Counted from the stretch's first letter, positions 2,486-56,240 are shown. The stretch: 64,000 bases of DNA from Pelomyxa schiedti (GCA_020536535.1 JAHLWZ010000193.1:1-64000), one strand, 5' to 3'. The notes: generated by a model not told the origin, from the sequence alone. Numbers and translations: made by a program.

Positions 2486-3980
2486 ATGTCGCTGTCGCCT
2501 CTTGAATCCACGTCCCCCCGCAACGAGGACCAAACACCCCAGCAACAGCAACAACCACCCTCCCAATCGCCATCGTCGTCACCGCCCCACCAACAGCAGC
2601 CACCACCATCGCTCCAGCCACAGCAGCTCCAACTCCAACCACAGCCAATGCCATCATATCACGGGGGCGGAGGCAGCCGCCACACATCGCCCACTCCGCC
2701 GTTCTTCTCACACACAGCCCCCGTGGTGCTGCTGCCCACGTGCCTCTCTTCCTCCGCGTCGTCGTCGTCGTCGATGGTATCCCCGGGGGCCTCGACGCCG
2801 TCCATGTCTGTGGTGCTGGCGCCGGTGTCGCCGTCGCTCTCGCCGTCGCTGATGTGCGTGAGCCCGCACCTGCCCTCCGTGGTGCAGTCGCCCCGCATAC
2901 CGTCGCCCCCGCCGTCGTCGCCCGCGCTGTCGCCCGCCCCGGGCTGCTTCATGATGCTGGGCGGGGGCACTGGGGGCTTGCTGGGCTCCTCCTCGTCGTC
3001 CTCGTCGGGGGCGTCGTCGCTGACGGCGTCGGGCGCGGGCATGGGTGCCTCTGGGGGCATGACATTCGATGGGAGTAGCTATGATGAAGAGTTGAGTGCC
3101 AGCATCCGCTTGTCACTTGAGAGAAGTAGTTCTGCTTCCCCTGAGCCTCAATCTCTGCATTTGAATAGGTTTCTTCTTCTTTCCCCCCACCCCCTTTTTT
3201 TTCTTCTCCTATCTTCTATCTTAAACTTCATGGGTACTGAAGCTTACCTGGTTTTTTTTGGTTTTGGGTTGTTGGAAATTCAGGAGTGGGGAGGATATCA
3301 GTGATATACCACCTACTATTTCTTGCATGGCGACAAAGTTTCCACCACTTGGGCATTCTGCACTCTCCATTGATAATAATGAAATTTTAATGGAAAAGCT
3401 ACAAGCTGTGGCTGCATCCCAACAACGGAAAAGACGTCAGCAAATCAAAATGGTAATTTATTTAAAATTATATATCACTCAACCTAACTCCTACACCCAA
3501 GGTTATGGTTGTTAGGCAAGATTTGAAAATGGTCACTCTTCCAATAAACCCTTTTTACTCCTCAATTATTTCTGCAGGGTGTTGGCAAAATTGCGGCACA
3601 GTGCTGCCATGCAGCACTTGGATTGTACAAAGAAGCCATGGCAACAGACAGAGGAAAAGAACTTGTAAACACTTGGGAGCATTATGGTTGCTGCAAAGTT
3701 GTTGTAAAAGCCAATTCTCAGTTTGAATTGTATGAGTACTGCCATTTTTTGCACTTGGATTTCACATTGCCGTTATAGGGAGACGTTGTTAGGTCAGGCT
3801 CATTCCCTGGACCTCTTTTGTCACCTAGTGGCTGATGCTGGAAGGACACAAGTTACCCCAGGCACTATCACTGTCATGAGCCTTATTGGTATTTCTAAAT
3901 ATCTCTTTTATTGGGACTGATCATTACACAGGGGAGAGTGAGGAAGTCGACAAAATCACAGGACACCTCAAACTTCTGTA
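2486..3980 (+). CDS. PTRH2: Peptidyl-tRNA hydrolase 2 (PTH2/PTRH2 family) with a ~225-aa Ser/Pro/Gln-rich N-terminal extension. Six-exon model: 2486..3168, 3284..3451, 3502..3531 (30-nt micro-exon), 3578..3720, 3779..3888, 3932..3980.
   Basis: The spliced translation reads …QQIKM|VMVVRQDLKM|GVGKIAAQCCHAALGLYKEA…GKELVNTWEHYGCCKVVVKANSQ|ETLLGQAHSLDLFCHLVADAGRTQVTPGTITVMSLIG|GESEEVDKITGHLKLL*. This closely parallels the human PTRH2 core (…[22 protein letters not shown]…KVVVKAPDEETL…[20 protein letters not shown]…VTGHLKLY), quoted from memory. All splice phases were checked by hand. Confidence 0.85.
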
Positions 3981-4097
3981 ATGTTTTTTCCCCCCTTGTT
4001 GTTATTATACCACCCATTGCCACTTCTACCAAAAAAAAAAAATTGTACTGTTGGAGATAGAACATCGCACAGCAAGAACTGTTGCAGTACATCAGAA

Positions 4098-7000
4098 ATG
4101 GAAGACAACGCAATACACTGTGACGAAAAGCCCTTTGAATCATCGGAATCGTTTGATTTCCGGCAATTCACAGAGCGGAAGAACAAAACAGGGAAACAAA
4201 TTCTCAAAACGTTAAACAGAAACAAAGAGATGTCCAGCAATCATAACCGGCACGGCACCAAGCACGACAAACATAAGCACAAACACGACCACGACCACGA
4301 CAACGACAACGACAACGATCACGAAGAAGATGCAGGGGAGAAGTCGTCGTCTCATGGGCACCACCGGCACCACAGATCCGGAGGCGGAAGTGGCCTCAAG
4401 GACGAAGGCAGCCACAGAGCCGACGACTACGTAGGAGGCGGCGGCGGCAGAGAAGAGGAGGCCGCCGGTGGTGGTGGTGCGCAGGAGAAAAGCTCCGAGC
4501 ATAGCGGAGAGGGGGCAGCGGCTAGATCGGCGTCGACGTCTCTGTCTTTGTCGGCCTCCATCTCGCCGTCGTTGGCAGCGGCTCTACCGCCTGTGCGGTC
4601 GCCGTCCCCTTCGGGCGTCTTGTTATCGGCGTCGTGCCCGCTGTCGGCGTCTCCGGCGGTGCCCCCGCCGAGCACTTCGCCTTTTCTTGGGCCTGTGAGT
4701 GGGTCTGGAAACCAACTTGGGGTAGGCTTTTGTCAATCTCTGGGAAAACTTAAAGCCTCGCTTCTCTTCTCCTCTTTTTTTCTAATTCTTTGATTCTCTT
4801 CTGACGAAAAACATAGCTCAAGAGCGATGATTCCATGGGAAATCCTTCAGGAGGTAGGACTCTGAGCCTTGTATTGGTATTTTGTAACAGTATTCTCCAT
4901 AGCTACCAGCAAGGAGCTTTTAATGAAGCGACTTATGGAGCAGCGGCAAAGGAAGTCAAACGCAACGGCTGAGGCAAAGCGGAAGCAAATTGAGGAAGAC
5001 CAAAAACAAAAGTTGCTTGCAGAAGAAGCAGAGAAAAAACGAAAGCAAGAGGAGGAAGAGCAGAGATTGGCTGAAGAGAAACGACAAGAGGAAGAGCGGC
5101 TGGCAGAGATCAAACGTAAAGAAGACCTAGCAAAGAAAGAAGCTGAAGAACGAGCAAATAGAATAGAATCCGAAAGGCAAGCAAAAGTTGCACAGATAAA
5201 AGTTCAAGAACAACCAGCATGGGGTCAACTTCTGAGGAAAAAAAGTACCGCCGGAGGATTGAATGAACTTTCTCCACCGACATCTTCACTCGCACCTCCA
5301 ATCACACTCACCCCTGTACCGACACCTACACTACCATCTCACACTCACTCACCGTCTCTTTCACAATCTCCAACTACAGTTCCGTCTCTGTTAGTTACAC
5401 CACCACATGACCTTCGGGCTGCAACTCCACCAGTCATCACAAGTAATACAGCCACTCATCCGTTGAATCGAGCTAAATCGGCACAAACTTTCAAGAAGTC
5501 ATTTGTACCCACAGACCAAAGTGGTGGTGAGGAGCTGGCAAAAAAACTTGCAAAGATGCGTGGTTCCACTTCAAGTTCAGATAGTCAGTCAAGCACACCT
5601 CTCACATGTGGCTCCTTGTCCAAGTCTACATTGGTAGATGTGAAAGACACAAAAGTGGAGGCAAACACTAACGCGTTGAAGCAGCAACAAGTAAGTGTGA
5701 CTGGATTTCCATTCAATGTGAAATTGAAATCCAAAAGTACATCTCTACTAAACAAGCTAGCTGAAGAACCTGCAGTACAACTTTGTCCACCCCTTCCCAG
5801 TAGCTCTGAAAATTCTAGTGGCACGGTTCAAGGAGCAAATACCGTACTCGACGCACCTGTACTTTTAATAACACCACCAGTAGTTGTAGTAACAGCACCA
5901 ATATCACCTTCCTTCTCCCAGGCGATCACAATGGAGATAACAAACACCATTCCGCCTCAAGCAACATCATCAGAGGATTCCAGCCAACATCCTTCCGATC
6001 TTGTGAAAACGGGGATTCCAGAGCTACCGGATTCACACGCCGAAGAAGTACCCCATAATGTTCCATGTCCGAACTCGGTGATCGACACTGCATCCGAACA
6101 CCCTAAGATAAAGCATAAAAAGAACAAAAGGGAAGAACTTGCTGAGACTGAGGTATGTCCGGTTGAGGAAGCTCAGATTACCACCACAGTGGAAGAAGTT
6201 GAACATCACCACCATAGAAAGAAATCTCAACCCGAAATGCAAGAACCCCTCAGACTCCAACAGGAAGAAGAAGAGCAAAGAAAGAAAGAGAGGAAACGGA
6301 GGCATGAAGAGAAACGGAAAAAGAAAGAGGAGAAATTACAGAAACAAAGTGAAAGAGCAACGGAAGAGACACCACCTATCAGAGAAGTAGAGACGGTCGA
6401 ACACCTCATGGGAGAAGAAAGACAACAGACCGAGCAATCAGATGGGAACCACGTAAGAGAAGAGCCTATCGGAAGAGAGCTTGACAGCAAGTGTGCTGTG
6501 CCAGAAGCAAACTCCGCTGATGAAAAACCTCAGCCACTTGAAAATGCCGAGGCAAAACTAGAACCAGAACCCGAACTCGAACCACAACCCCAATTCGATA
6601 CACAAACACAAGCGGGAGCGGAAGTTGAACCTGAAGATCAAGCTCAAGCCGAACCAGAAACTCAAATTCAAACTCACGCGGAAGCTGAAGATCAAGCTCG
6701 ACCTGAAGCGGAACCAAAACCAGAACCAGAAGTTACTGCGATGGCACAATTGGAAACGGAAGTGGAAGTAGTTTCAGAGAAGAAACAAATTGCTGAGTTA
6801 GCTCAGCCAGCTGAAGAAGCGCCAAGGCGGCTAGAAGAAGAGGAGAAGACCAGGGAAGATAAGAGTAAACAAATTGAAGACGAGGCTAGCCTTTTGGAAG
6901 TAGAAGCGGAAAATAGACAACTAACAGAACAAAAAGAAGAATTGAAATGTGTAGTTGACGAGGCCAAACTCCTTCGTGAAGAAGAGAATAAAAAACTTGA

Positions 7001-8286
7001 AGAGGCTGAGCATGAACGAGCTGAAGAGGCACGAAAAGAGGAAGACAAAGAAAAAATGGAAGCGGCACTTAGAGCAGAGGAAGAGGCTAAAAGAATTGCT
7101 GAAGAGAAGGAGGTTCGAGAAGAACCTGAGAGACGAATTGCTGAAGAGGAAGCGCAGAAACAAGTGCATGAAATGCAACAGGGAGATCACCAGCGGCACC
7201 GCGTGGAAGAGGAAGATAAGGTTCAACAGTTAGAAGAAAAAAGAAGCGTGGAAGTTCAAAATGAAACACATAGTGGCATCAGAGATGAGGATAGTAAACC
7301 GTTTGAAGTGAAAGAGCCGGGAACAAAAGTGGTTCTGACACCACTTGAAAATGTGCAACAAGTTATTATACCCTTACACGTTGAGACCCTCCCAATAGAG
7401 GTGATGGATGTGACAACAGAACCCACTCCCATAAAACCACAAATCACCGTCAAGTCAGACTCTCCAGAATCCCAAGTCGCCCCCCAACTTGTACAGCAGC
7501 ACACAGCCACACATTTGGAGAATGCTTCATCACACCAAATGGACCAGGAACCGGTTGTGAAGAATGCCTTGGCACACGCTTCGTCACCTCCACAGCCAGC
7601 AATAAAATCTGTGGAACCAGGCAAAGTCAACACGACCATTGCTATCCTAACAAGTGTCGTGCCGACTGTTGTTAGACGTGAACCAGAACACCTTGCACAA
7701 ACCAACATTGTACAGCAGCAGAGGGAGAAGTTTTTATCACTGCAACCAACAATAAAATGTTCAGCAAAGAGCCCTTTAATACAACCCTCTGCTGTCCAAA
7801 GTGCACGAGGAGTTTTCATGAAGGTTTCCATACCTCCTTTATTTGTTTGATTCCTAACTTCTTTACGCAGACCCAAACCGCGGGACCTAACACTAGTACT
7901 GGGGATGATAAACTCTCCCTCAGTCAGGCGGCAGCAGCTCGCCGTCGTGAAGAACTGCGGAGGAAGCGGGAAGAAGAGGAGGCCCGTAAAAGGGAAGAAG
8001 AAGCCATCAAAAGAGCCGAGACCCGCAAGTGGTTTGAGGAGTGGGAACGGAAGCAAAAGGCACAAGTGGGTAATTCCTGAAGGCACAACACCACACCAAC
8101 CAACAACCTTGTTATCAGTAAGTGTATAGTTCTATGGAGCAATATTTCTCTTTTCGTCACATGAACGATTTGTGTCACAGCTTCAGAGAGGCTTGTAGCT
8201 GTGGTTGTGAGGGAGGCGGTGCTTGATGCAACCGTGAAGAAGTGCCGAGGGAGATTGTTGATGGTAGGGATGATAGCCACCGTGTG
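4098..8286 (+). CDS. Large Glu/Lys/Arg-rich coiled-coil protein with a His/Asp-rich N-terminal block (HDKHKHKHDHDHDNDNDNDHEED) and central acidic Glu-Pro repeats. Multi-exon: 4098..4694, 4817..4853, 4891..7823, 7871..~8069, 8181..~8286. Family unknown.
   Basis: In-frame joins verified: …FLGP|LKSDDSMGNPSG|VFSIATSKELLMKRLMEQRQRK…; the 993-aa ORF at 4869..7850; the donor AAG|gtttcc at 7823 and the acceptor cag|ACCCAAACC at 7871; the KREEEEARKREEEAIKRAETRKWFEEWERKQKAQ exon. The last exon assignment is tentative. Confidence 0.6.
6541..6735 (+). repeat. Coding acidic repeat (EPEPELEPQPQ… / AEAEDQA… / PEAEPKPEPE) inside the coiled-coil protein gene.
   Basis: Reiterated gaacc(a/c)gaa / cctgaa motifs with a 6-nt periodicity; the minus-strand ORFs 6466..6749 are antisense artefacts of this repeat. 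Confidence 0.6.
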
Positions 8287-10080: not shown

Positions 10081-11164
10081 TCACTGTTTTAGAGAGAGAT
10101 CATTAATGGTTGTGATTAAGATGGGTCGCACACTTTCTGTTTGTTCATCAAGTTCCTGTTTAACTTTTGTTGTATTCAAAGCTTCATTCTGCTCTGATAG
10201 CTTTGCAACCTCGTTTTTGAGCCGACTAATCTCATTTTCCTGTCTCTGCAGCCGGCCAACTGCCGAAAAACAGTCCCCACCGCCTCCAAGCCATTGAACC
10301 ACAATGGTTGGTTTGTCTCCAGGCACTATGAAAACTCCATCTTTCTGCAAAGTTCCAGTCTGGCTGGTTTTTAGCGTCCCCCTATAAGTCGTGAATGTTA
10401 CTATGCCTTGGCCAACACCATCGGCTGTGAAAGAGCCCATGAACATGTCTCCATTTGGCCACTTCTTGGTTCCATATGTTGGCGCTCCCATTTCCCAATC
10501 ACCAACAAACGAGGTGCCGTCGCGTGCCCAGGTTTTCGTCCCCGAGCCATGCTCCTGCCCATACGCCCAATCACCTTCGTACGTGGTGCCATCGCTCCAT
10601 ACCCTCACGCCCTTCCCGTGGAACATGTCGTTCTGCCACTCCCCAACATAGCATCCCCCTTCTCCGCTACCAAAGAGCATGCTCCCTGTGCCGGTTTTCA
10701 CGCCGGTCAAATTTCCCATGGAAGATGTCGCCCGTGTCCAGCGACCTCAAAGTGCCATACCCGTGCCGCTTGTCCCACTTCCACTCGCCCTCATACACCG
10801 TCTCTAGTGTGACATAGTCATCATTGGCGCCGCTCCTCACTTTCGCCATTTGCACACCCCACCCGTGCTTGTAATTTGCGCCGTCTCTATCGCTCTCCTT
10901 CCATTCGGCGTCAACCAGTTCGTCATGGGTCTCCCATGTGCCCTTGGCCCACGCGCCACCACGCCACAGGCCTGAGTAGGAGCCCTCACTGCTGTCTAAC
11001 ACACCCCACCCGTCCCTCTGGTTGTTGAAAAACTCGCCTTCGTACGTGGATCCGTCAGGGTAACACAGAGTCGAACGACCTTGCAACGTAATGTACTGAG
11101 GGCCCCTGTTGGTGGGCCTTCTCCCCCTGTACATTGTTTCGAAACAAAACAGTTCTTCGACCAA
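10081..11164 (-). CDS. MORN-repeat protein (≥8 MORN-like YxGxWxxGxxHGxG units) with a C-terminal coiled-coil. Reading frame breaks near 10700.
   Basis: ORFs 10667..11164 and 10081..10719 (minus) both encode MORN repeats (YEGEWKWDKRHGYGT… / YVGEWQNDMFHGKGVRVWSDGTTYEGDW…) but sit in frames offset by +1 and overlap at 10667-10719. The tail reads …RLQRQENEISRLKNEVAKLSEQNEAL. Confidence 0.75.
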
Positions 11165-20872: not shown

Positions 20873-21390
20873 TTGATGGCGGCTCGGTCTGGTGTTGTAC
20901 CCCCAGCGGCGTCGTCAGCCAAGCACGACGGCAGATCTCTTAAGGACAAATTGGTCGCGTTGTCGCACGCCCAGGTGGCAGAAGCCGTTTCAGATGCACT
21001 GGAGACAGTCCCACCCTCCCATGAGCTATTCCCGGGGCTTCCAATAGTAGAGGTGCCCGAGGTCGTAGTCTCGCCCGCCGAGCCCGACGCGACCAAGCTT
21101 GCGGAGAGGAGCGCCGCCAAGTTGAATCTGTCAAAGATTGTTGTCAGTGCTGATCCAGATCCAAATTTGGTGTCGGACGATTTTGGAGACAGAAGCGTGG
21201 CGAGCGGTTGTTGGGCCCACAGGGTTGCCAAGGTAATTTCATTTCGGCACCCAATGGGGATGTCTCTTTAATTATGGTTGTCAAGTGTCACTTTTGTTTT
21301 AGTTTCCAATGATGTTGGCTCTGTGTGGTCTTGCTTTTCTCGTTGGCATTGCTGGTGGTTTTAAATTTTATTTGATGGCTCACCTGTAGC
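20873..21390 (+). CDS. Hypothetical small tail-anchored protein (two exons; C-terminal TM FPMMLALCGLAFLVGIAGGFKFYLMAHL). Strand assignment uncertain.
   Basis: Plus-strand ORF 20873..21271 can splice (donor AAG|gtaattt at ~21231, acceptor tttag|TTTCC at ~21302) into a hydrophobic terminal exon ending 21388-21390. A competing minus-strand ORF 20722..21231 has an S/T/A/G/L-biased composition typical of antisense reading of GC-rich coding DNA. Confidence 0.3.
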
Positions 21391-21639
21391 GTTATTTCTT
21401 TTTTTTTTTTTAGATGTATGAGGCAGATTCGGAGGATCTTCCACCATTCCCAGCAGCTTTTTTTGTGATACGTAGAGATGTGTTATCTCGGTCTTATGTA
21501 AAGCGATCATCCTTGATTGTATTAGAGCTACATGTTGGGGGTTAGGTCCAATAAATTTCTTCTCTCTGCTTTTCACAACAACTCGATACACCGGGAAAGT
21601 AAAACTTAAGCAACACACAGTTGAGAAGCAAGATTGCTC

Positions 21640-24600
21640 CTATCATTTCCGCACGTCAGTGACTTCTGGCACAATTGAAAAGATCGATAAAGGCACTGCT
21701 AGGCATATATATTATCCTGCTCGAACCATACAAGATGCCAAAGCAATTTATGGTTCTCTTCTCAGAGAAAAGGTAAAGTTAGAAAACTGTTTAATTTTTA
21801 TTGTGTTTGCAGACTTCAAAAAGCAACAAATATAAGAAAATAATGTTGGCTCTCTCTAACGTGGGGACTATCACAGGTTTCCATTTCACTGGTCCCTTTT
21901 CCCTTAAAATCTTTCCTAGGTAGTATTTCAACACTCCCAGTAGCTGTCCGTGACTTGCTTGTTCTCTTATACAACGAATCCGTTTTGCAACTTTGTCAAA
22001 AGGAAATCCAACTTTCAAAGCTGTCTGCACCACAAATAGACAAGGCTCTTGTGTGCCTTAGCAAATTGCAACAGGTTACCCTTCTTTCTTGGCTGTACAC
22101 AAACCCTTGTCCCTATTAAGGCAATTTCCTTGCATGAACCACTTGATGAAGCCACAGCCCAGCAGTTATCAACAGAATTTTATTCTAACTTACCTCTTCC
22201 CAACCACAAACAAGTGGTAAGAATTCTCCAGTCGGAAACTTTGTAATTTTTTTTCAAGGTCATAACCTCAAGTGATAGCCTTCTTATGTGGTTAGATACA
22301 CTTCAAACAATTCGGGATTTTTCCAACTTCGGTGAAAGTTCTTTTGACTTCACTGGGCGATTGAACGATGTTGATATGTTGTATCCTTTTTAATATGGAC
22401 AATTTATAAGACACCCAAGTACCTTAACCCCCAAGATACTACTCTCTCGACTGTAAACTCGAGCCTCTTCAATTTGATTCCTCTGAGTACATTTCTATCT
22501 GTGAAATGGTTTCCAGACATGCACCCTTGAATATTGGAAACATATTCCATGTATCAAGGCACATGGATCTCAGCTCCTTCTCGTCAGAAATGGGAAATGA
22601 AATGCTCCTCTTTCATGGATCGAAAATAGGCAATTGGTTGGGAATCCTTTCTCGAGGGTTGCTCCTCCCACAGATAGTAACTTCAGAGTATGGAGTAAAG
22701 CGTACAAATGCTGGGAATATGGGAGCAGGGCTTTATTTTTCCGACAGTCCACTGGTATCACTTAAGTATACCACTCCTTCTGCCTCCGGCTCCAGGTTAT
22801 TGCGGTATTCTCTGGAGGTCTCTAATTCAATGCTTAGGTATTTACTCATCTGCCGAGTGGCCCTTGGAAAAGTTCACATTTTGACGAACTACAATTTATC
22901 TCTGGTTGCTCCCCCACATGGGTTCAACAGTTGTCATGGCGTCAAGAGCACTTATAATTTAACAAGTGATTTTGACGATGATGAGTATGAGCAATCAACT
23001 TACATTAGGGGCTGTTCCCTTTTCATGTAATTCTCAGATATGCTATCTACACACCTGCTCAGCAATACATCCAGTATCTAGTTGAAATAAAGGGATACCA
23101 ACCGACAATGTTAGCTTCATCGACGAAGTCTATGATTTCTCAAGCTCTTGCTGGTATGCGGGAACGGCAGCCTGTATATTGTGCAGACATTCCGGGGCCA
23201 CTTCTTGATGTTGAACCTGTAAGTCATTTTGCACTCTCTTTCATTAAATCTCCAAGGTAACCGAAAAAGCGGGCCTTATCTCAACAAGTGGAGAGCCCTT
23301 GCCACTTGAAAGTGTTAGCCTTCACGCTAAATTGATAGGTTCTTCCATAGAGTCAATTTCCATAACAAACAAGCCTTTTAGACTTGGTTGGCCAGGTCGT
23401 CATACTTCAAGAATATCATAATTCAGGAGACTCCGCCATCCAGGCCAAATATGTCTTTCCTTTGGATGAAAAATCTGCCGTTGTTGGCTTCGAGTGTTTC
23501 ATTAATCGTATTCTTCGTCTTCATTTGTTTTCGCTTTAAACCGTTGCAGACAAACATATAGTGGGTGTGGTGAAAGAGAAAGAGCAGGCGCATAAGGAGT
23601 ATAAGGAAGCCATCGCACGTGGTGATGGTGCATACCTACTAGATGAGGCCAAATCAAATGTCTTTACTGTTTCTGTGGGAAATCTACCACCCCATACCAA
23701 AGTGGTTATCAAGATAACATGTTCGCAGGTTTCTTTTCGATAATCATTAACTATTTCTAGATATCACTGAACTTGGTCTTGAAGGTGATGCTAGAAAGTG
23801 GATTTGTCCAGTTAACCTTGTATCACAGCAAAAACAAGGCGCACTGGCTCAGGTCACACAGGCCTCAACCAAGTCAGTTCATGTTGCACAACATGAGGTA
23901 CTGTCATATGCTTTACGTTTCCTTATCCTATCAGGGAGCGTTTACCATGGAAGTCTCAATAGCGATGCCTCATGTGATTCATGCAATTGAAAGTCCATCA
24001 CATTCGATTCGCTATAAGCAGGCATCCAAGAAGGCAACATTATTCCTATTGGATCATGGTATGATGATTCTGGGTGCTAAAAAAGTGCATAAGAAAAAAA
24101 CCCAGAGGCTCTCAGTAGCGACTTCATTCTTGTAATTCGTCTATGTGATAGCCACACACCATTTATGTGGGTTGAAAAACATCCTTTGTGTATCAATACT
24201 CCTGATAATGAATTGCACGTTGCAATGGTGGCTTTGTATCCCTCTTTGAGTTCTCCGGAGGCACATTCACAATGTTTCCCCTTTGTTTTGTTTTGTGTTA
24301 ATATTCCCAGATACACTTATTATTGATCAATCTGCTAGCATGGCCTCAGCACAATTACAGTGCAAGCAAGTGGCACTGCAATTGCGTACCCTTCATCCCC
24401 CTAGAATTACCGTAATTCTTTGTAGTAAACGGGATACCACCTCTGGCGAACTTCAACCTTGTTATATTTGGCTCTTTCTTTGAAACTCTCTTTCTTTCAT
24501 CAACTCAAAAAACACGACAAACTGAAGAGATTGCTGTGACTACTATTAAAAGCATGGCTGCTGATTGGGGTTCAAGTGTTTTGTGGCCTACTTTAAAATC

Positions 24601-26940
24601 AGTTCTTCTTGAAATTGAGTGTAGAGCACATACCTCTGACAAAACGGAAGATACAAATATTTTCATTCTCACAGATGGGGATTTTTCTCACGATTCCCAA
24701 GTTATGAATGTATGTATGGTGCTCCCTAGGCCCACACAATCCTCAACCAATTTATTTTTTCTCTGCTCCAGCTTCTTCGTGATCACTGCCAAATTAAGAA
24801 GCATTCAACTCGCATTTTCTCATTTGGGATTGGGAATACTGTTCACAGACATAACGTCTTGAGTCTGGCCCGAATTGGAGGTGGTGAATGTGAATTTGTT
24901 TCCTCCACAAATCCTTTACGGCGACAGGTGACTGCGTCAAGTCTGGGGTAGAAATTTAACTATTTCTTAGGTGTATAGGCAATTGGAGAGGGCTAGACAA
25001 CCATGTCTGAAAGATATCAATGTTAGGTGGGGGGCCACTGCAAGTTCCAGTACCGTTCAACAGGCACCGTCTCAGATAATGACCCTATTCAATGGAGAGC
25101 GCACAATAATATATGCATTTATTCCTTCGGACTGCCAACAAGTTGTGACATTGATGTACTTGAATTGCTAAACTTTCTCAGGTCACACTTCATGCCACAG
25201 TAAACAATACCAACGAAGAGTACCATGCAACAGTCTTCTCTAATGTTGCTGAAATGGTGGAAGGGCTTACCCTCCATAGACTTTGTGCTCGGGCAATAGT
25301 CCGGTATGTTTTCTTGAAATATGTTATATTTCACCTTCTTACTAGAGATTGGGAAGAAATGTGTTTAGGGGAGGATCCGGTATCAAGTGAAGTGGCTCGA
25401 GCAAACGTGTGCATTCCTTTTCTATATGCAGGCATTGATATCCTGTAGCAAAAAGGGGAGATTATCCAACTTGGAATTCGTTACTCCCTTGCAACAACCC
25501 TGACCTCTTTTATTGCCGTTGAGGTAAGGATTTTTCCTTCTGCTCGATTTTCATTTTTTCTACAGGAAAGAACTGAGGCAGAAAAGAAGGGGTAACATTT
25601 TGGGGAACAAAAACACTTTTAATCGATTTTAAGAGATGTTAAGTTAAAGCCAACTCCTCCAATAAACGATTTGGCTGTGCAAGAAAAAGTCGATGAGCTT
25701 CCATTTTGTACCAACTGGAAAGAAGTTGTGTTACCTTCCCCCGGCACATTGGCAGTTAACACACGGACACCATACCCAGCAACAAAGCATTCAACTGTCT
25801 ACGACTACTGGGTATACAGCCCCCCAAGTGACAACGTTCCTCCATTACAAACAGAAAATCCAAGTGTGTTCATTCTTTATTGCAATTTTCTTATTGATTC
25901 CCCACAAGATTGGGAACTTACAAATAAGCCCAAAGGTTACCTTTCCCACTATTATTCCATGGCCTAAACAAACCCTACAAGATGATTGGAATGCCTTTCC
26001 GAAGAGAAATGAAAGAGCATTTCCAGCTTCTGGAAGGCGTGCCCGTAGAGGATATTTTGGAGGTGGGGACATCGGTGGAGGTGGAGGTGGAGCTGGTGGC
26101 GAGATAGCTTCGAGATTCCCACCACTTGCCTTAGGAGATTTATGTGGTAGCTCAGATGTTATGATGGACGGGATTTGTGATATCAATGAGGAGGAAGAAT
26201 GTCTTGAAGAAAATGATGACGATTATGGGGAAGAACCTATGGATGGTGATAATGTGGCGTTTTCCAAAGATGCACCTCCATGTGACATACCTCTAGCCAG
26301 CTCAGCCGCTCAGCCAGCTTCCACGGAGACAAAACCGAATCTCGGAACAACGCCACCTTCGAACAGTGCCTTGCGTTCGCTTTCTCCACAGCTCCGTACT
26401 GGGAAGGATGCCCTCGACCTTCTCGATTGCCAAGGGGCTATTATTCGGCAACAAGATGAATGCCTTGACAGAATTGAAACCAACATTTCCCAAACCAGAT
26501 TCCTTGCAGCATCCATGAACAGAGAATTGGGCGAACACACTAGATTGCTGTCAGGAAGCTATGAGCTGCAAAGGGCTGAAAGGATGCAATCCGCTGGCTG
26601 CTGCTTTATTGCCACCGCAGCCTATGGCACAGACATGGACCCCCGGATAGATACGCTGCGCCGTTTCCGTGACACAACACTTCACAAACACTCACTCGGA
26701 CGAGCGTTCACGCGTTTCTACTATGCGACATCACCCCCTTTTGCCAAGTGGCTCACCCAACACCCCTGGGCCAGGCTCACAGTTCGCATTCTACTTCTTC
26801 CACTCGTAACCTTACTTGATCACCTGGGTTATAATCCTCACTCTGAGAATTCCCCACAAGATGCAGCAAAGACCTTACTGACACTGCTTGCGTTCCTCTC
26901 CTTTCTTGGTTTGGCTGTCCTGCCCTTATTCATATTCTGA
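21640..26940 (+). CDS. Vault poly(ADP-ribose) polymerase (PARP4)-like protein, multi-exon. Domain order: PARP helical/regulatory segment; PARP catalytic domain (22506-23030); VIT domain (~23230-23760); vWA domain (~24290-25450); linker; C-terminal 'CFIATAAYG' domain plus TM anchor. The 5' end is uncertain.
   Basis: PARP catalytic exon reads NIGNIFHVSRHMDLSSFSSEMGNEMLLFHGS…NAGNMGAGLYFSDSP…LLICRVALGKV. The preceding exon STEFYSNLPLPNHKQ resembles the PARP helical domain. The VIT exon reads AKYVFPLDEKSAVVGFECFIN…VVKEKEQAHKEYKEAIARGDGAYLLDEAKSNVFTVSVGNLPP. The vWA exons read TLIIDQSASM… and TNIFILTDGDFS…. Confidence 0.8.
22506..23030 (+). other. PARP catalytic domain exon (His-Gly-Ser / Tyr catalytic-type motifs) of the vPARP-like gene.
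   Basis: LLFHGSKIGNWLGILSRGL; GAGLYFSD; LLICRVALGK. The third catalytic position looks variant: DEYEQSTYI where canonical PARPs have NEYIVY. Confidence 0.8.
26584..26940 (+). other. C-terminal domain of the vPARP-like gene: SAGCCFIATAAYGTDMDPRIDTLRRFRDTTL…GRAFTRFYYATSPPFAKWL…, then a terminal hydrophobic helix TLLTLLAFLSFLGLAVLPLFIF. Resembles a prokaryotic C-terminal sorting-type domain.
   Basis: Read directly from the 25693..26940 ORF. The similarity to a bacterial/archaeal 'CFIATAAYG…FRD…YY…SPP + TM' C-terminal domain is from memory and has not been checked against a database. Confidence 0.5.
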
Positions 26941-39521: not shown

Positions 39522-40667
39522 ATGCACGCGGAGCCACCTTCGGAATACGACCTTCCGCCGTCCGCATCTCCAGCAGCGCCACTCGATTTCCGACAACTAA
39601 CTCCACTCGATAAGTGGTGGGAATATTACTTGCTCGACCCGACCACGAACACGCTGACTCCTAAGAAACGACAGGAGCCAGACTACGTCATGGAGGGTCT
39701 GTATTTGGGAGATCAAGAGAATGCGTACAACCACGAGGTTAGTTCCCGTTCTTTGTAAGTAAGGGGTCAATGGTTAGTGGGAGGTGAAGTTCTGACTCCG
39801 CTCCATGGTGTATTAGATCCTGGAGAAATACCGCATAACTCACGTGTTGTCTTTTACTATGGATGACAAAACACATCACGAGTCCCGCTTCCCGAAATAC
39901 ATCAAATGCGCTACTATAGCGTATGCACTCAATACATTCCAGGAATGTATTCAATTTCGGTAGTGTTGAAGATAAGCGAACAGCAAACATTGCACAATAC
40001 TTCCCAACGGCACTCGCATTTATTGATCAGGGCCGCGCGGCTGGAAGTGTCCTCGTACATTGTGTCTGGGGTATGAGCAGAAGTGCCGCTGTGGTCGTTG
40101 CCTACATTATGTTCAGGTATTCTCCCTTGTGCTGAGTTATAAATGAATGACAAGGTCTTCCACAGGCTTCGTATGAAATTTACTGATGCTTTATCACATG
40201 TTCGGAAAGCTCGCCCTATAGCAGCACCGAACGATGGATTCTTATCGCAGTTGGACGAGTTTGGAAGGCAACTTGCAACAGTGGAAATGAGCGTGCAGTT
40301 CAACACCGTGTGGGGGGAGATATTGCATGTTGTTGGGTCAACAGAAGAGCTGGGGAACTGGAGGCCCACGGAAGCCAACCGAATGACGTGGTTCCCCGGC
40401 AATGTGTGGAAAATTGACCTGCCATTGTATGGGAAGGCCTTTGAGTACAAGTACATTGTGGTGCGTGACGAAGACGGAGAGGATCCAGCAATGAGATGGG
40501 AGGTCTGTGGCAACAGACTCTATGATGGCTCAAGGCGGTTCGTCAGGGACAGGTGGGACTTCAACCCCATCACCCTCGCTGGTATCAGTGGACCCTCCAA
40601 TTTCTTACTTCATCATCCAACTCAGCCGACTACAGGCTCCCCAAGTAATAATGGCTTGAGGACATAA
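39522..40667 (+). CDS. Dual-specificity protein phosphatase (classic HCxxGxxRS DUSP catalytic loop) fused to a C-terminal CBM20 starch/glucan-binding module. A laforin/SEX4-like glucan phosphatase architecture in DSP→CBM order; 5 exons.
   Basis: DUSP motifs EPDYVMEGLYLGDQENAYNHE | ILEKYRITHVLS… | VLVHCVWGMSRSAAVVVAYIMFR. CBM20 exon VQFNTVWGEILHVVGSTEELGNWRPTEANRMTWFPGNVWKIDLPLYGKAFEYKYIVVRDEDGEDPAMRWEVCGNRLY (conserved aromatic and GxW positions of CBM20). Confidence 0.8.
40301..40560 (+). other. CBM20 carbohydrate-binding module within the DSP gene.
   Basis: LGNW…W…FEYKY…W motif pattern typical of starch-binding domain family 20. Confidence 0.7.
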
Positions 40668-41037: not shown

Positions 41038-44000
41038 ATGAGAACCAGAACAGGGGGAGGTGTGTTGGTTGTTGTCTTGACAGTAATCGCCTGCGTGGCG
41101 GTAGTTCCCTGCGGGGCCTGGGGACCGTGCGCGCCGTGCATGACCACGCCCGGGATCAACGTGTGGATCACAGCTAGATTTATAACGAATCTGAGCGTCA
41201 CGCGGCAGTGCGTACCGGTGGTGTGCGGTGGCGTGCCGACCACGGGCTTCGCCGACACGTTGACTGGAATGCGTCAGGTTATACTTATGGACCCATATGC
41301 GCCACTCGCTCAGTTTGCTTGGAACTGGGTTCCTCCTGTATCGACATGCAACGATACGTATGTTCCTCTTCCCTTTTTTTTTTTTTTTTTTCTTTTCCTA
41401 CAACAATTTTAAACCGACTTGGTTGTGGAGGAATGTGTTAGTATAATGCACAAATATTGGAAACCATAACCTTCGTTTAAATTATTCTTTAATGCCAGTT
41501 TTTGAGTTCATGTTGCTTGTATCAGTAATATAATAGACGGACAACAATTATCTTCAATGTAGCAAGCCTAACAAAGCTTGTAACACTAAAAAGTATTTGC
41601 GATTCTTGTACATACACAACGGATTACATCCAGCGTCTGGGAGTATCAGGAGCAACTTATACGCCAGCTGCAGCCACTGGTACAACTGTATCAGTGACTG
41701 GATTGTCGTCGTTTGGGTCTCCACCCCCCAGAGGCACTCTCTCTTACTTCAACGCCACTGTGGGCTGCGCAGCGGCATCTGTTATTACACTATCATTTAC
41801 GCTGGACGTGTGGTGTAAGAACGTCGGAAATGCTGTGAGTGTGTTAGATTCCACTTCTTTTTCACTTTCCTGGGCATGTGCAAAGCCTGGCTGCCCTGCC
41901 TACTGCCACCCAGATCACGGTTACTGTGACCCTTACCATGGTGTCTGTATTTGCACACCACCCTGGACAGGCGCAACTTGTGAGTTTATGTTTTCTTACA
42001 CTCCCACAGTGTGTCCAGGCCAGTATATAACCATGTCTTATTACGTCCCGTATGTAATGTAATATCGTCTCCCCGTAATTGAACTCTTCTACTCCCTCCT
42101 GCAATACACAATAGTGCTTCGATGTATGGGTTGCCACAAGCTCTCACCGTCATGGCTGCTCGCCTCTTTCACAGTATTATGATGGTTGAAACTCGTTATT
42201 TTCTACATTGGAAGGACACTGTCAATGCCAGTGACCCTGATCTTGCATATCCCGTGAACGGAACTGGTTATTTTCCCGGCTTTTATACACCAGGAGCCTA
42301 TCCAATTATGGTGTATGCTGCGTTAGCCTCACCAATCACGTACCTCACGGCAGTGGTAAGACTCTTTTTGCTCTGTTGTTTCTAACATAACCAACCAGGT
42401 TATTGTCAAAGATTGGAGTTTATGTGGTGTAAATGCCACCTGTGGGGATGGTACCTCTAACGATTGTGGTGCTACCAACCAGTGGGGCCAGTGCTACAGT
42501 GGGAAGTGTGTGTGCAACGAAGCCCGTTTCTGGTCTGACTGCTCCCGAGGCTGCTCTGGCTACACAGTTGTAGAAGATGGGAGTGGTGTTGTGAAAAGTG
42601 ATTACCCTCCTGATGGCAGTGTAGCTTCCATGTGCTATCTGAGGAAGAATATTTGCAGATGGCTTATAAGTCCAACTGGGAAATATGATATTATAAAGAT
42701 GAACTTCACCTCATTTGGTATCATGGATCCTGATAAGTTGCTGGTGTTCAGTAGTGACGAGAATGGAGAAACAGACGAGCTCCTGGCTACTTATGGATCC
42801 ACATTTACAGAAGACTACCTTGAAGTAGAGGCCCACCATGTCTTTTTGGAGTGGTCCTCCGGTCCCTACAATACCTACCAAGGCTTTGTACTCGAATACA
42901 GTACCAAGAATAAACCAATTCCCGATGCTGGACTTGCTCTGATATTCTTTGCTGCTGCTGTTGTAGGTTTGGGTGTGGCGATTTGCCTAGCTGTCGGTGC
43001 TAGAATAATCGTAGTGAAACGCAGGAAGAGACTTCAGGCAGCCAGAAACATGCCTGCTCTCAATCTGAAAGATATGATGACTGAAGAAGAGATGGCTTCC
43101 CTTTGTGGGGTAGAGAAAAATCAAGAAATACTGGAGGAAGTTCGGGTTCAGCTGGATAAATATGAACTAACATTTGGCGTCACCGGGTTGTGCCCTGTGC
43201 AGAAGCCAATGTTTGACAAGATTACAATTTTCAACAAGAATGGCTCAACACTGCATTACCAGTTTTCAGTTTTGAACTTGTCTTATCTTGTCGCAACCAG
43301 TATCAGACCTGGGGTGGGCAAAATTCCCCCGCACAAGCGCATGGAAGTTGACGTGGAATGCTCTCTTCTGATGACAACTCGTTTCCAACATCCTATACGA
43401 CTGGATATTGTTAAACCTACTGGTGAGCTTGACAATGAGGGAAAGGAGATTGTGGAAATTCTCGCCACAGCGTACATCTCTGTCACTTTAGAAGGGGAAT
43501 TGTCAAGGTGGATTGACCCTGCCGATTTCACAGATATTTCTGCCCCTATCGCCAGGGGTGGTTTTGGGTAAGATTTACCGATTTCCAGTATCCGTTTAAC
43601 CCCCTTAACAAGGTGTGTATACCGAGGGAAGTATAGAGGTGTCGATGCCGCCCTCAAAATGCTCTTGCACCAGGAAACTTTCAATAAAACCGAAAATGAG
43701 GGGTTTGAAAAGGAATGCAGCTTAATGAATAAACTGAACCATCCTTGTGTTGTCACTTTCATTGGAGCATCCCATGTCCCTGGTTCCTCTCCCTCATTCC
43801 CCTCCTCTCATCTCATTACTGCATCTAGGAAGATTTTGCATCTGCTGTGAGTGGATTCCATTTGGTAGTTTGAGCTCTCTACTCAAAGCTGAGGGAGTTT
43901 TTGACATTCCTATTCACCGCGAGTATTTCTTGATCAAGTGTGCTCTAAATACGGCTGAAGCTTTGGCATATTTACACACAATGAATATTCTGTATCGTAA

Positions 44001-45025
44001 GTATTCATCTGTATTCAACAACCCTTACACTCGCAGGTGATCTGAAATGTTCAAATGTTCTAGTCTGCTCGCTGTCACTTGACGCGGACGTTAATTGCAA
44101 ACTCACCGGTATGGTTGCGGTTGGAAAGTATACTACAACATTCACGTAAACTTCAGATTTTGACACTGCCCGCAATGTGGACAATCCAAGTTAGAATCTT
44201 GTCAAACACCTGTGTTCCTAACTTCTTTGCAGATCTTGTTATGATGTACACAACCAAGCTGGGCACCGGTATCTTTATGGTAAGCATGACCAACTACACA
44301 GAAGTTTAACCTTCTCCAAGGCCCCTGAGCTGCTAGCGCCATGTACTGGCTACAACAACAAAGTAGACACATACAGTTACTCCCTTTGCTTGTGGGAAAT
44401 GTGGACGCGCCAAGAGCCATGGGCAGATGTTACACCCGAATGGGCTGTTCGCAAAATGGTCAAATCAGGGCAGAGGCCTCCACTGGACAAAATGGACCCC
44501 CCAGCCCCCCCCTCGATCCTCGATCTTATACAGAAGTGCTGGCACCAAGACCTCCACGCAAGGCCAGCGTTCCCCGATATAGTAGAGATTCTAGAAGACA
44601 TCAAGGCCACTTACAAGGACCGCCTTAACGTAGAAGAAAGCGATTCAAAGAGCGAGGGCCATCACAAGAAGCATCACAGGCATCACCACCACAAGGGTAA
44701 GAAAGGGAAGAAAAGCCAAAGCAGAAGTCGCAGCCGCAGCAGGAGCGCAAGCGCCTCGCCAGCCAGTGCCAGTGCCAGTGCCAGTGAAAGTGAGAGCAAG
44801 AGCAAGAGCAAGAGCGGCACCGGAGCCCACAAAAAGCACTCCAGCAAGAAGCACAAGAAGCACGAGAAGAAGAGCGCCAAGTCCAAGTCCAGCCACAGTG
44901 ATAGCCACAAGAAAGCCAAAGGCAAGAAGCACAACAAAGGGCACAGCTCCAAATCCCACAAGCACGGTTCCTCCTCCCCCTCGCCCTCCCATTCAAGCCA
45001 CAGCAGAGGATCCTCATCCTCTTGA
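41038..45025 (+). CDS. Receptor-like TKL Ser/Thr kinase, paralog B. Domain order: signal peptide; Cys-rich EGF-like segment (…CDPYHGVCICTPPWTGATCEF); CUB-like module; TM helix (LALIFFAAAVVGLGVAICLAVGARIIVV, ~42920-43010); MSP/PapD-like module; kinase; His/Ser/Lys-rich tail.
   Basis: ATG at 41038; signal peptide MRTRTGGGVLVVVLTVIACVAVVPCGAWG; intron 1 has a gtatgt donor and a poly-T tract at 41375-41392. The 353-aa exon 42510..43571 holds the CUB-like stretch (CYLRKNICRWLISPTGKYDIIKMNFTSFG…), the TM helix and the MSP-like stretch (…SIRPGVGKIPPHKRMEVDVECSLL…). Kinase motifs: GGFG|KVYRGKYRG…AALKML | DLKCSNVLV | DFDTARN | CLWEMWTRQEPWADV…CWHQDLHARPAF. Stop TGA at 45023-45025. Confidence 0.8.
44700..44990 (+). 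repeat. Coding low-complexity tail of kinase B ([44 protein letters not shown]…) including a hexanucleotide microsatellite (gccagt)n at 44764-44790.
   Basis: Direct reading of the sequence: (gccagt)4-5, then (gagagcaag)n. The antisense ORFs 44645..45324 are artefacts of this repeat. Confidence 0.7.
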
Positions 45026-45268: not shown

Positions 45269-48200
45269 ATGCCCCGGAGCGCCTCGTATGTCGTTGGCGT
45301 GTCAACTTTTGTCGCTGCGGCCACCGTCCTCCTCCTCGTACAATTAATCTCGGGCGCCGTGGGTACGACGCCTTACTGCATCAACGTCGTCGGCTACTTC
45401 CCGTACAACTTCTCGTACCCCGACTGGTACCACGTCATCCCGGTTCCGATCGTGTCGTGCGACGTCGTCAGCACCGCGTTCATCGACGAAGGATACCTGT
45501 CGCCGGCGTACACGCCGCAGATCGACGGCGTGTACCGTACGCTGAAGCTCGCGTGGTGGGTGTCGCTAAAGACCACGCCCTCGCCCTCTTTGCCGAGGGA
45601 CGACAGAGGAGTGTTCTACTACGACGGCTACGAGACTGGCGTGCACAACGGCGTGCGGGTTCGGTTACCCGCGGAGCAGGATGACTTTGCTAATCTGGGT
45701 GGGGGTGCTGATGTGGATTATGGGACTGCGGGTGACTCCTATGGTGCTTCTGTGAACGAGCCGAGGTACTACCCTTACTCGATGGAGTATGGCGCTGGAC
45801 GGCCCAGCGTGTTCACGACCGTGGACAATGGCGAGGATGGGGATGGATATGAGCATGTGGAGGTGCGGGATATTACTACTCGCGCTGGATCCTCTGATTC
45901 AGAGTCGTCGTCGTTGTCGTCTTCCGACTCCGACTCCGACTCTGACTCTAGCTCCGAATCTGATTCCGAGTCGGAGTCTAGCTCGTCATCTTCGGAAGAA
46001 GTATTTCCCTGTTTCTTCCCGCCATAAGCACTAATCGTAGTAAAGGTAGTGCAAATTCCATTATACAAGAGGGCTAACGGCGTGCACTTTGCTGCTGTTT
46101 GGACTGCTTTTTCAGTTGCAAAACCTATTTAGTATGCCATTTCCCACTAAAAGAAAATTCTCCCTTAAGTGAGCCCCTAGCATGTTCTGCACACAACAAA
46201 AGTCCGTTTCAAGTAACAGTATTCTAACCTGTGTTCAGCACCTCAATGACGGTCACTGGACTAAGCGCATCGGGCCAGGCTCCTACTTCAGCTAGCTTCT
46301 TCAATATCACTATTTCGTGCCAGGAACCAGCTGTTGTAGCAGCATCTATGTCTCTTATGCTCAGTGACTCTTCATCTATAGTCACCTTTGCCCCTCGATG
46401 GATGTGCTACACACCTGGTTGTCCTTCTTGGTGTTCATTACATGGGGTCTGTGACACCCTACGCGGAACTTGTGTATGCAACGAAGGATGGGAGGGCACT
46501 GATTGTGCGATAAAAGTTGTGACAAACTGGGTCTTTTGCCCCCAAGACCCGATCATCGTCTCTTATGAAATACCGTGAGTTCTTGCACCCTTCCAAAGTG
46601 ACTTGAATAACTCAACTCCATCAGGTACACCACAAGTGGAGTGACTGGGACAGGCAACTCAATGTTTATGACAATCGTCACGCCTTTAACCCCTATAGCA
46701 TATGATTATCGCTATTTCATGACCTGGGCTACTGTTGTTCCGTACCTTGCAACGGAGGGATATAACAAAGATTACTCCGGCACTCATCTGACACCAACGT
46801 ACTTGGCTCCAGGGTCGTATTATATGAGGGTTTCAAATGACCTGACTGATACTGTTGTACTACTGAAGCAGATGACAGTTAAAAGTTGGGCAGCCTGCAA
46901 TATTTCTGCAACTTGCGGCAACGGCACCAACAACACTTGCAACAGCGAAACCGGTAAAGGCACCTGTGTAAGTGGTTCCTGTCAATGTGCTTCTGGGCGG
47001 TTTTGGTATGACTGTTCCAGGGGCTGCTCTGGCCTTGCTTTATCGTCCTCAAAATCCGGAGAAGTGAGGTCCGACTACCCAACAAGCGGTAACATTGATG
47101 ATATGCGTGATTCTAGTGTTATGTCAACCTGCTATTGGCTTATATCCCCACCCGATAGCTATGACGAAATTGTACTCAATTTCACATTTGTGGGACTGGA
47201 CTACATTGGGGTACTTTACGTATACAAATCTGATGAAAATGCTTCTGTTGGTGAACTTGTTATGACTATTAACAGACTGGCTCCAGCGCCTAAGGGTATC
47301 AAAACTCGGCACGTCCTCGTTGTATACGAAAAACTTGCCACTATGAGTACACATGGATTTGCTCTTTCTTACTATACACATAACATACCCCTTTCTGGAA
47401 TCGCAATCGGTTTCACGGTATTCTGCAGTATCCTTGGGGGGTTGATACTGGCAACGGCAGCTGGAATTGCCATTTACTTCCTTGTAAAACGACAAAAACG
47501 GTTGAAATTGCAAGCTATGAACGAGCCAGCTGTTGAAGAAGATATGATGACACCCGAAGATCTTGCTCATGATAGAGAGAAATTTGAAGGGCAGAAGGAA
47601 GAATTCGTGGCTGCTGGCTTCCAAGTGGACAAGACACGATTAATGTTCTCTTTGAAGCAAACCGATCCCTTCCCAATAAGAGAACAGCGGGAGGATCTTC
47701 TGAGTATATCTAATAACACGGGAAGAGATGTACAATACTGTATTTTCGTTCCAAAACAAGAATTGCTGATGAAGTTTGCCGTGAAACCGGGCAAAGGAAA
47801 AATTCCAGCTGGCGCAACCATGGTGGTTGAGATTAAATTGGAACTATTCTACACAACCCATTTTGACTACCCCATCCGAATTGAAATTACTTCCTCCAAC
47901 GGCACAGTACAATGCATGCACATAGACGTCAAATTTGAAGGCGCACACTCTGTGTGGATTGATCCAGAAGATATTCGCTTAGACCAAGAAATAATTGCAT
48001 CTGGAAGCTTTGGGTATTTAGCCATGCTCCCATGTTTTAAATACTGGGTAGCTCACCTGAATTAGGAGTGTTCACCGGGGAGCCTACAAAGCGCAGATGT
48101 TAGCTATTAAAGTACTAAAAGATCAAGAAGGGTTAAGTGATAAAGATATCGAAGAGTTTGAATCTGAATGCAAGCTCTTGAATCAAATTCACCATCCAAA

Positions 48201-56069: not shown

Positions 56070-56240
56070 ATTGACCTTGGTATACATGGTTAAAAACAAT
56101 AGAAAGTTTGTATTTTTGCCTGAATAAGGCAACAACGCTCCTGGGTTGTCGTCCCTCTTCCAAATCACGGGTGGACCTTTTTGCCTTGATCCACGGAAAA
56201 CAAGGCAACTGGAAAAACAAAGAAAAAGGAAGGCCAATGC

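Follow-up and report, generated by a model that had tools for sequence, protein, structure and literature searches.

How does a PARP, an NAD+-dependent type of enzyme active in the cytosol or nucleus, come to end in a bacterial-type domain and a putative membrane anchor? The question is raised by a gene of the amoeba Pelomyxa schiedti that lies on the plus strand of a 64,000-nucleotide stretch of DNA (GCA_020536535.1 JAHLWZ010000193.1:1-64000; hereafter the window) and resembles animal vault PARP (PARP4). We found that its last exon encodes a full-length CFI-box (CFI_box_CTERM, NCBIfam NF041770), a module borne by proteins of many bacterial phyla, and that a hydrophobic helix forms the extreme C terminus. 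The explanation that we favour, one gene for a tail-anchored PARP4-type enzyme whose CFI-box was captured from bacteria, is as a whole moderately probable.

Gene model and domain content

The DNA of the window is eukaryotic. In the region of the gene, no long open reading frame (ORF) spans the conserved domains, and short coding blocks in alternating frames lie between GT...AG segments of 35-69 nucleotides. The locus corresponds to the deposited gene KAH3765658.1 (P0033 below; 1465 amino acids), annotated as 'protein mono-ADP-ribosyltransferase PARP4 [Pelomyxa schiedti]', and is thus already known under the PARP4 name. The P. schiedti annotation was made first with Augustus and then, on transcriptome data, with PASA/EVM, and counts 7.4 introns per gene; the genome paper is silent on PARP and vaults (PMC8887013). 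We built a spliced model by hand, running through 26 exons from the ATG at 21414 to the stop codon at 26938-26940. Its 25 introns are all GT-AG and 35-69 nucleotides long (median 42), and in a protein search its product showed 99% identity to KAH3765658.1 at 100% coverage, the two differing in four minor splice choices, none of them at the 3' end. The parts of the gene are as follows.

20876-21232, plus strand: candidate first coding exon, not in the deposited model, encoding MAARSG...GCWAHRVAK; its open frame runs up to a GT donor
21414-25935, plus strand: intron-dense PARP4-like body of 25 exons (hand-built model, human PARP4 alignment)
21928-22321, introns included, plus strand: PARP_reg (helical) domain (PF02877, 28.9 bits, cutoff 26.8)
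22512-23086, plus strand: PARP catalytic domain (PF00644, 85 bits)
23305-23762, plus strand: VIT domain (PF08487, 121 bits, positions 1-111 of 111)
24316-24897, plus strand: vWA domain (PF13768, VWA_3, 34 bits)
25864-25908, plus strand: 45-nucleotide intron whose excision yields the paralogue-conserved motif NP-x-W-x-LT
25936-25981, plus strand: 46-nucleotide intron GTTACC...TACAAG, whose excision drops the in-frame TAA at 25965-25967 and connects the body to the last exon
25982-26400, plus strand: low-complexity linker, Gly-rich, then acidic, then Ser/Thr/Pro-rich (direct reading; human PARP4 match absent)
26401-26592, plus strand: predicted single long alpha-helix of about 64 residues (AlphaFold2 helix 8-71, block confidence mostly 87-93)
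26599-26808, plus strand: CFI_box_CTERM domain (CCFIATAAYG...FRD...YY.SPP...RILLLPLV; NF041770)
26872-26937, plus strand: hydrophobic C-terminal helix TLLTLLAFLSFLGLAVLPLFIF (putative tail anchor), with the stop codon at 26938-26940 after it

An earlier note on this DNA, made from the sequence alone, had placed the gene at 21640-26940. The end of that span stands and its start does not, the annotated ATG lying at 21414 and the probable start at 20876. From the candidate exon at 20876-21232, a 181-nucleotide GT-AG intron (21233-21413) fuses VAK|MYEADS in phase, giving a junction like the paralogues' ...GTWAHRVAKVYDPSS..., and the exon resembles the N-terminal extensions of the P. schiedti paralogues P0034, P0035 and P0036; a Pfam scan and a hydropathy scan of it returned no Pfam match, no BRCT and no signal peptide. 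The true start is probably at 20876, which would leave the deposited KAH3765658.1 short by 119 N-terminal residues, and the predicted product is a PARP4-type ADP-ribosyltransferase of about 1,470-1,580 amino acids. At the other end, the ORF 25693-26940 of the earlier note is not an exon, and the last, intron-free exon lies at 25982-26940. Base composition along 20876-26940 is a mosaic: the PARP-to-vWA body has a GC content of 43% and a third-position GC content of 37%, the 5' exon is 59% GC, the linker has 60% GC at third positions and the CFI-box is 55% GC.

The trio of PARP catalytic, VIT and vWA domains recognised in the earlier note is indeed encoded by one spliced plus-strand gene, and its PARP4-type identity is clear from comparison with solved structures. 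Human PARP4 was by far the best solved relative of the whole protein, residues 7-1089 aligning in one collinear stretch to its residues 140-1211 (528 bits, E 3.9e-157). For the catalytic region alone, human PARP4 (8sx1) scored 163 bits (E 8e-47), PARP2 64 bits and PARP1/2/3 at most 64 bits. The vWA domain carries the DxSxS motif of the metal ion-dependent adhesion site type as DQSAS within 24319-24342 and a TDGD within 24665-24682, both read from the spliced sequence. The catalytic His lies in LLFHGS (22605-22622), the Tyr in GLYFSD (22728-22745) and the Glu in DDDEY|AIY (22974-23050), across the intron at 22985-23037. A non-canonical third catalytic residue had been suspected from the string DEYEQSTYI, which we rejected as a catalytic site, as it is produced by reading through this 53-nucleotide intron. 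Once spliced, the site reads DDDEY|AIYTPAQ, and DFDDDEY|AIYTPAQQYIQYL aligns residue by residue with human PARP4 FEDDEFVVYKTNQ (the EDDEFVVY region). The predicted H-Y-E triad is intact and bears no sequence sign of inactivity; the hint at a mono-ADP-ribosyltransferase or inactive enzyme falls away, because it depended on the unspliced reading.

Animal vault PARP (PARP4/vPARP; 8sx1, 9bw6) shares the regulatory, H-Y-E catalytic, VIT and vWA domains in the same order. It has a BRCT domain (PF00533/PF16589), whereas the Pelomyxa paralogues with full N-termini have neither profile, and PF26156 and PF26166 match animal PARP4 and are absent from P0033. The C-terminal third of human PARP4, beyond residue 1211, includes the MVP-binding region in animals; P0033 has no match to it and continues instead with the linker, the helix, the CFI-box and the terminal transmembrane (TM) segment. 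As far as sequence goes, 'vault PARP' is here a homology label only.

The prokaryotic C-terminal domain that the earlier note had pointed to, uncertain of its database name, is real, and the profile search it had proposed identified it as NF041770. The match is full-length (1-69 of 69), scoring 91.3 and 94.1 bits where the curated cutoff is 40, with an E value of about 1e-26, and the peptide ...SAGCCFIATAAYG...FRD...YY..SPP... maps to 26599-26808. All family motifs are present (C-F-I-A-T-A-A-x-G, R..FRD, YY..SPP and R...L.P), and the opening Cys lies 112 residues from the C terminus, the family median being 102. A search of the window for a second copy found none. We modelled the C-terminal module with AlphaFold2 from a 44-sequence alignment, in every sequence of which an invariant Cys opens the CFI-box (44/44). 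The model is all-helical, with a mean predicted local distance difference test (pLDDT) score of 87, and the CFI-box forms four helices at a per-10-residue pLDDT of 80-97; comparing the CFI-box model with solved structures, we found no similar fold. The long helix before it shows a Qc-SNARE-like pattern (IIRQQDECLDRIETNISQTRFLAASMNRELGEHTRLL), with a PF05739 match of 14.3 bits (E 0.042) that covers 13 residues only and stays below the cutoff of 26.8; this helix gave no sequence match in the PDB and no BLASTP similarity to the R-SNARE region of P0034, and we do not call it a SNARE. The terminal hydrophobic helix described in the earlier note was borne out by the hydropathy scan: the last 22 residues reach a Kyte-Doolittle value of 2.51, are the sole segment above 1.6 in the 1465 amino acids, and have no residue after them.

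The fusion of the CFI-box exon to the PARP4-like body is, with high probability, real. Both 3' introns that we inferred (25864-25908 and 25936-25981) recur unchanged in the deposited model. Removal of the 45-nucleotide intron gives ENP|NWELT, the paralogues having NNPYWTLT, SNPHWQIS and KDPYWTLT at this point, and reading through it would insert 15 amino acids found in none of four aligned paralogues. Two P. schiedti paralogues on other contigs, P0034 (1617 amino acids, 58% identical) and P0035 (1667 amino acids, 55% identical), end like P0033 in GCFIATAA[YF]G...FRDTTL...YY..SPP... plus a terminal hydrophobic helix, and NF041770 scored above its cutoff in P0034, P0035 and the further CFI-box proteins P0060, P0061 and P0063 (75.6-93.9 bits). 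P0034 has a bona fide Synaptobrevin (R-SNARE) domain (PF00957, 49 bits) just upstream of the CFI-box, in a position equivalent to the long helix of P0033. The fourth P. schiedti paralogue, P0036, has no CFI-box and ends in a Ras/Rab-like GTPase (150 bits). All four paralogues of the PARP4-like family thus bear C-terminal modules of membrane-traffic type, which is circumstantial evidence for a membrane-associated role of the family. In the P0036 GTPase the G1 motif comes after the rest of the domain, and a Cys-rich hydrophobic patch is present (CCGSVCLCIFCLPCLCLLGGCGG).

To look for the fusion elsewhere, we scanned 1.84 billion representatives with a HMMER profile of the Pelomyxa C terminus and screened locally the best 150 of 24,659 matches. 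The only VIT-vWA carriers among these 150 were P0034 (representing the Pelomyxa cluster), P0061 and P0063. Three contigs show the fusion. In the metagenome contig L002, nucleotides 1-2058 encode a vWA domain (45% identical to residues 811-1120 of P0033), the CFI-box and the TM segment in one uninterrupted frame of 685 codons; the contig is eukaryotic, with an RNA polymerase III RPC5 gene downstream, and shows no synteny with the window. Contig L001 (Logan SRR21762700) is a transcript-like sequence of 3.1 kilobases with a single 987-amino-acid ORF at 51-3014 for VIT, vWA, CFI-box and terminal TM segment. Contig L003 (Logan SRR23919873), which encodes P0060, has the vWA-tail motif TSFIAVEER upstream of the CFI-box in the same frame. 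These junctions, paralogues and one-frame contigs support the view that the CFI-box exon and the vWA exons belong to the same gene. The 987-amino-acid protein of L001 has no PARP domain, begins with a region of about 200 amino acids before VIT, and in its VIT-vWA part has slightly higher identity with acidobacterial proteins (40-42%) than with eukaryotic VWA5A (34-39%). At about position 130 of L003, just upstream of the otherwise continuous frame from vWA tail to CFI-box, an in-frame TGA interrupts ...IQLATT*YNVSSSYTSFIAVEE...; a retained mini-intron, a recoded stop or an error of sequencing might account for it.

Predicted anchoring and topology of the C-terminal module

In the typical bacterial CFI-box protein, a signal peptide and a passenger are followed by a Gly/Ser linker and by the 69-residue box, which the invariant Cys opens; after the box come a hydrophobic helix and then a basic tail. 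The passengers are unrelated and come in dozens (SGNH esterase, FN3, subtilase, cohesin/dockerin and DUF11 among them). P0033 has in common with these proteins the full-length NF041770 match, the motifs, the distance from Cys to end and the following hydrophobic helix. It differs in its surroundings: the bacterial passengers are extracytoplasmic and preceded by a signal peptide, whereas the amoebal proteins pair a passenger of cytosolic type with a basic stretch ahead of the Cys and end with the TM segment. The 10 positions ahead of the Cys are rich in Gly and Ser and have a net charge of -0.5 across 170 bacterial-type copies, whose tails after the TM segment average +2.5. In all six amoebal-type copies, by contrast, the charge of these positions is +1 to +5, and only 0-4 residues, with no charge, follow the helix; P0033 itself has a net charge of +1 before the Cys and zero residues after the TM segment. 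The hydropathy scan found no N-terminal hydrophobic segment or signal peptide in the amoebal proteins, even when the extra 5' exon was included. P0033 thus combines, as tail-anchored proteins do, the lack of a signal peptide with a single TM segment within about 30 residues of the C terminus (its insertion and orientation being predicted), and has neither the signal peptide nor the Gly/Ser linker nor the basic tail of the bacterial secreted type.

By the well-established positive-inside rule, such reversed charges would be expected of an inverted module, with the box in the cytosol and the end of the helix in the lumen, as in a classical tail anchor. The charge pattern suggests that the amoebal CFI-box is part of a cytosol-facing tail anchor, with an orientation opposite to that in bacteria, where the box would lie outside the cell and the basic tail inside. 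The membrane-anchored localisation proposed in the earlier note is the natural reading of a terminal TM segment without a signal peptide, insertion and orientation being predictions. As it lacks a signal peptide, the protein would be made in the cytosol, and its terminal helix would insert post-translationally. The helical CFI-box would then rest on the cytosolic face of the membrane, with its invariant Cys possibly acylated or the box acting as an oligomerisation or docking module, so that the PARP/VIT/vWA machine would be held at an endomembrane instead of in a soluble particle. That about 60% identity was kept after the presumed move to a cytosolic, inverted context argues that the CFI-box is a folded functional domain.

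Several points weigh against this account. Membrane insertion, orientation and any modification of the Cys are predictions from sequence. A weaker, second hydrophobic helix inside the CFI-box (WARLTVRILLLPLVTLL) could form a hairpin with the terminal one. Literature searches with CFI-box, CFIATAA and NF041770 found no paper, hence none on CFI-box function even in bacteria, and no similar solved fold was found. The same single gene might accordingly encode something other than a simple tail anchor, namely a membrane hairpin of the inner and terminal helices, or a sorting signal that is cleaved and lipidated, with processing at the invariant Cys. The helix that closes the CFI-box does reach a TM-like threshold in P0034 (1.95) and P0063 (2.09), but the P0033 helix, with two Arg in it, falls short of the hydropathy threshold. 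Likewise, a Cys that is invariant at the start of the module in the whole alignment, and a bacterial layout of motif, TM segment and basic tail that is typical of sorting signals, as the name 'CTERM' implies for bacteria, would fit processing; yet the module has about 100 amino acids and a confident helical fold, and is far longer than known cleaved CTERM signals. We know of no processing enzyme for the CFI-box, and the neighbourhoods of two bacterial CFI-box genes contained no recurrent partner or processing enzyme. The hairpin is the chief competitor of the tail anchor. We regard the hairpin or sorting signal as unlikely and return to the tail anchor.

Known systems offer partial parallels. 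PARP16 (ARTD15), the PARP of the animal endoplasmic reticulum, has a C-terminal TM anchor and a cytosolic catalytic domain (PMC3372510, PMC7695420). It is a precedent for a tail-anchored PARP, and the likeness is functional, not homologous, as PARP16 is small, belongs to an unrelated PARP subfamily and has neither VIT/vWA nor CFI-box. Tail-anchored SNAREs (synaptobrevin/VAMP) resemble P0033 in their long helix, of about 64 residues here, and in the TM segment at the extreme C terminus; they differ in that the P0033 helix lies about 95 residues from the TM segment with the CFI-box between, an arrangement incompatible with canonical zippering into the membrane. The marine proteobacterial sortase targets of TIGR03788 combine, as in Pelomyxa, a VIT-vWA body with a C-terminal anchoring signal. 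They are secreted, however, and have a sortase motif instead of a CFI-box, and the TIGR03788 scores of the Pelomyxa paralogues and P0063 (190-284 bits, in the VIT-vWA part) lie far under the equivalog cutoff of 551.

In the literature searched, we found no description of a C-terminal bacterial-type module on a PARP4-like protein, of its apparent use as an inverted tail anchor or of the predicted family-wide replacement of the vault-binding end. To our knowledge, PARP4 is the least understood of the large PARPs, the vault particle being its only established context; a lineage with a membrane-wired PARP-VIT-vWA body, and with SNARE- and Rab-type modules in sister genes, would offer a natural experiment on a vault-independent role. 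A broader reading, which we put forward tentatively, is that an archamoebid ancestor turned a bacterial anchoring module inside out, and that the module now tethers a small PARP4-like family to endomembranes, the vault-binding end having been replaced by membrane-traffic modules. Just as tentatively, the replacement would have brought an R-SNARE motif to one paralogue, a Rab/Ras-like GTPase to another and the CFI-box to three. On this reading, ADP-ribosylation of the PARP4 type would be tied to the membranes of vesicles or symbiont vacuoles and not to vault particles, and the CFI-box would be an autonomous membrane-proximal domain usable on either face of a membrane, beyond a sortase-type signal. 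The family is huge (more than 24,000 clusters), no paper on it was found in the searched literature, and the amoebal copy would give it a tractable eukaryotic handle.

Bacterial relatives and origin of the module

At E<=1e-3 the profile search gave 24,659 cluster representatives, of which 12,511 also pass E<=1e-10. When prokaryotic species, each represented by one genome, were scanned with CFIATAA[YF]G, at least 591 loci in named bacterial genomes were confirmed. The groups among the matches listed include Dehalococcoidia, Desulfobacterota (Geobacter, Geomonas, Citrifermentans, Desulfobulbaceae and Syntrophales), Gammaproteobacteria, Bdellovibrionota, Nitrospirota and lineages of the candidate phyla radiation, among others, and the closest of the 150 best matches inspected sit on operon-like prokaryotic contigs. 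The eukaryote-type sequences among these 150 carry the CFI-box only on PARP4/VWA5A-like bodies. A word-indexed protein search with the last exon returned bacterial-type matches only; it missed the deposited protein itself and is not evidence of absence from eukaryotes, long proteins seeming to be incompletely indexed, which makes the negatives of such searches unreliable for C-terminal domains.

Since the module occurs in hundreds of bacterial genomes on many passengers and the eukaryote-type copies only on PARP4/VWA5A-like bodies, a capture from bacteria before the gene family duplicated is the reading that we prefer, and an origin of the amoebal CFI-box by transfer from bacteria appears likely. 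The capture would most likely have taken place in the archamoebid lineage. The GC-richness of the last exon is not specific evidence for transfer, because the 5' exon is equally rich (59%).

Two results count against a bacterial capture. A neighbor-joining tree of 187 CFI-boxes, built on a 72-residue core, leaves amoebal and bacterial cores unseparated: all comparisons are 55-65% identical, and the amoebal copies are nearest each other with bacterial ones almost as close. Moreover, P0063 may not be eukaryotic, as its VIT-vWA part is 40-42% identical to acidobacterial proteins and 34-39% to eukaryotic ones (VWA5A). The horizontal acquisition suggested in the earlier note is therefore plausible from the distribution, whereas its direction and source are not resolved by the tree; with a core 55-65% identical throughout, donor, timing, direction and number of transfers are not fixed. 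This uniformity across domains of life would also suit a CFI-box that Archamoebae did not take from bacteria, be it an old eukaryotic module since lost from other lineages or one that passed from eukaryotes to bacteria, and as the best 150 of 24,659 matches were inspected, other eukaryotic carriers may exist. Set against it are the bacterial loci in many phyla, the dozens of unrelated bacterial passenger domains, the single type of body among eukaryote-type copies, and the nearest VIT-vWA relatives of P0063, in 119 of 119 of which the CFI-box is absent. We consider such a non-bacterial origin improbable. Captured from bacteria, the module would be a clean candidate for domain-level transfer from bacterium to eukaryote, in an amoeba living with bacterial endosymbionts.

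Integrity of the fusion and neighbouring features

Two features of the junction weigh against a single gene. An in-frame TAA at 25965 closes the frame of the body unless the 46 nucleotides are spliced out, and a pair of ATGs follows at about 26163; the 46-nucleotide intron itself rests on annotation, analogy and frame statistics only, the first 180 nucleotides after it having a codon score that is only weakly positive (+0.10 per codon for 25982-26160). There might accordingly be two adjacent genes fused by the predictors, a PARP4-like one ending at 25965-25967 (...GYLSHYYSMA*) and a small tail-anchored one starting from the ATG pair near 26163 (MMDGICD...), whose separate protein would comprise an acidic N terminus, the long helix, the CFI-box and the TM segment; intergenic spacers in this genome can be short, with about 250 nucleotides after 26940 as an example. 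The frame downstream of the intron speaks otherwise, with 0 stops over the 64 codons before the candidate ATG, the other frames having 2 and 4; the intron is typical in size, sharing its length and 5' hexamer with the intron at 22075-22120 of the same gene. Every paralogue runs hundreds of residues beyond this point, the fused architecture is predicted at three paralogous loci, and vWA tail and CFI-box share one frame in L001, L002 and L003. Two separate genes are very improbable, and so is the small protein that they would imply. One gene is favoured because the deposited junctions, the NPxWxLT motif, the paralogues, the VIT-vWA/CFI contigs and the frame statistics agree.

Bacterial contamination or a chimeric single-cell assembly, conceivable in that P. 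schiedti was assembled from amplified single cells with bacterial symbionts, a Candidatus Syntrophus among them, and that the CFI-box segment is 55% GC against 43% in the gene body, is very unlikely given that the 5' exon is just as GC-rich, that the CFI-box shares an open frame with eukaryote-type low-complexity sequence and has amoebal genes on both flanks, that three paralogues on separate contigs carry it with the amoeba-specific basic stretch before the Cys and without a basic tail, and that independent contigs of other samples show the same fusion.

Elsewhere in the window, two tandem paralogous receptor-kinase-like genes lie at 42510-45025 and 46641-49837 on the plus strand, each composed of two ORFs, the first for an ectodomain that contains Cys (motif WYDCSRGCSG) plus a TM segment and the next for a PK_Tyr_Ser-Thr C-lobe (PF07714, 28-31 bits). 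Two ORFs contain MORN repeats (10081-10719, minus strand, and 56241-57191, plus strand; PF02493, 44-47 bits), and an ORF with a CBM20 starch-binding domain (40143-40667, plus strand, 53 bits) is overlapped by an ORF of 194 amino acids on the opposite strand. The regions 1-8000 and 50000-61000 are occupied by long low-complexity ORFs, Ser/Thr/Pro/His-rich and Glu/Lys-rich, that are often open in several frames together (for example, 326-2032, minus strand; 4869-7850, plus strand; and 60103-61101, minus strand). Strong AT and GC skews accompany these regions, the AT skew reaching 0.41 at 6001-8000.

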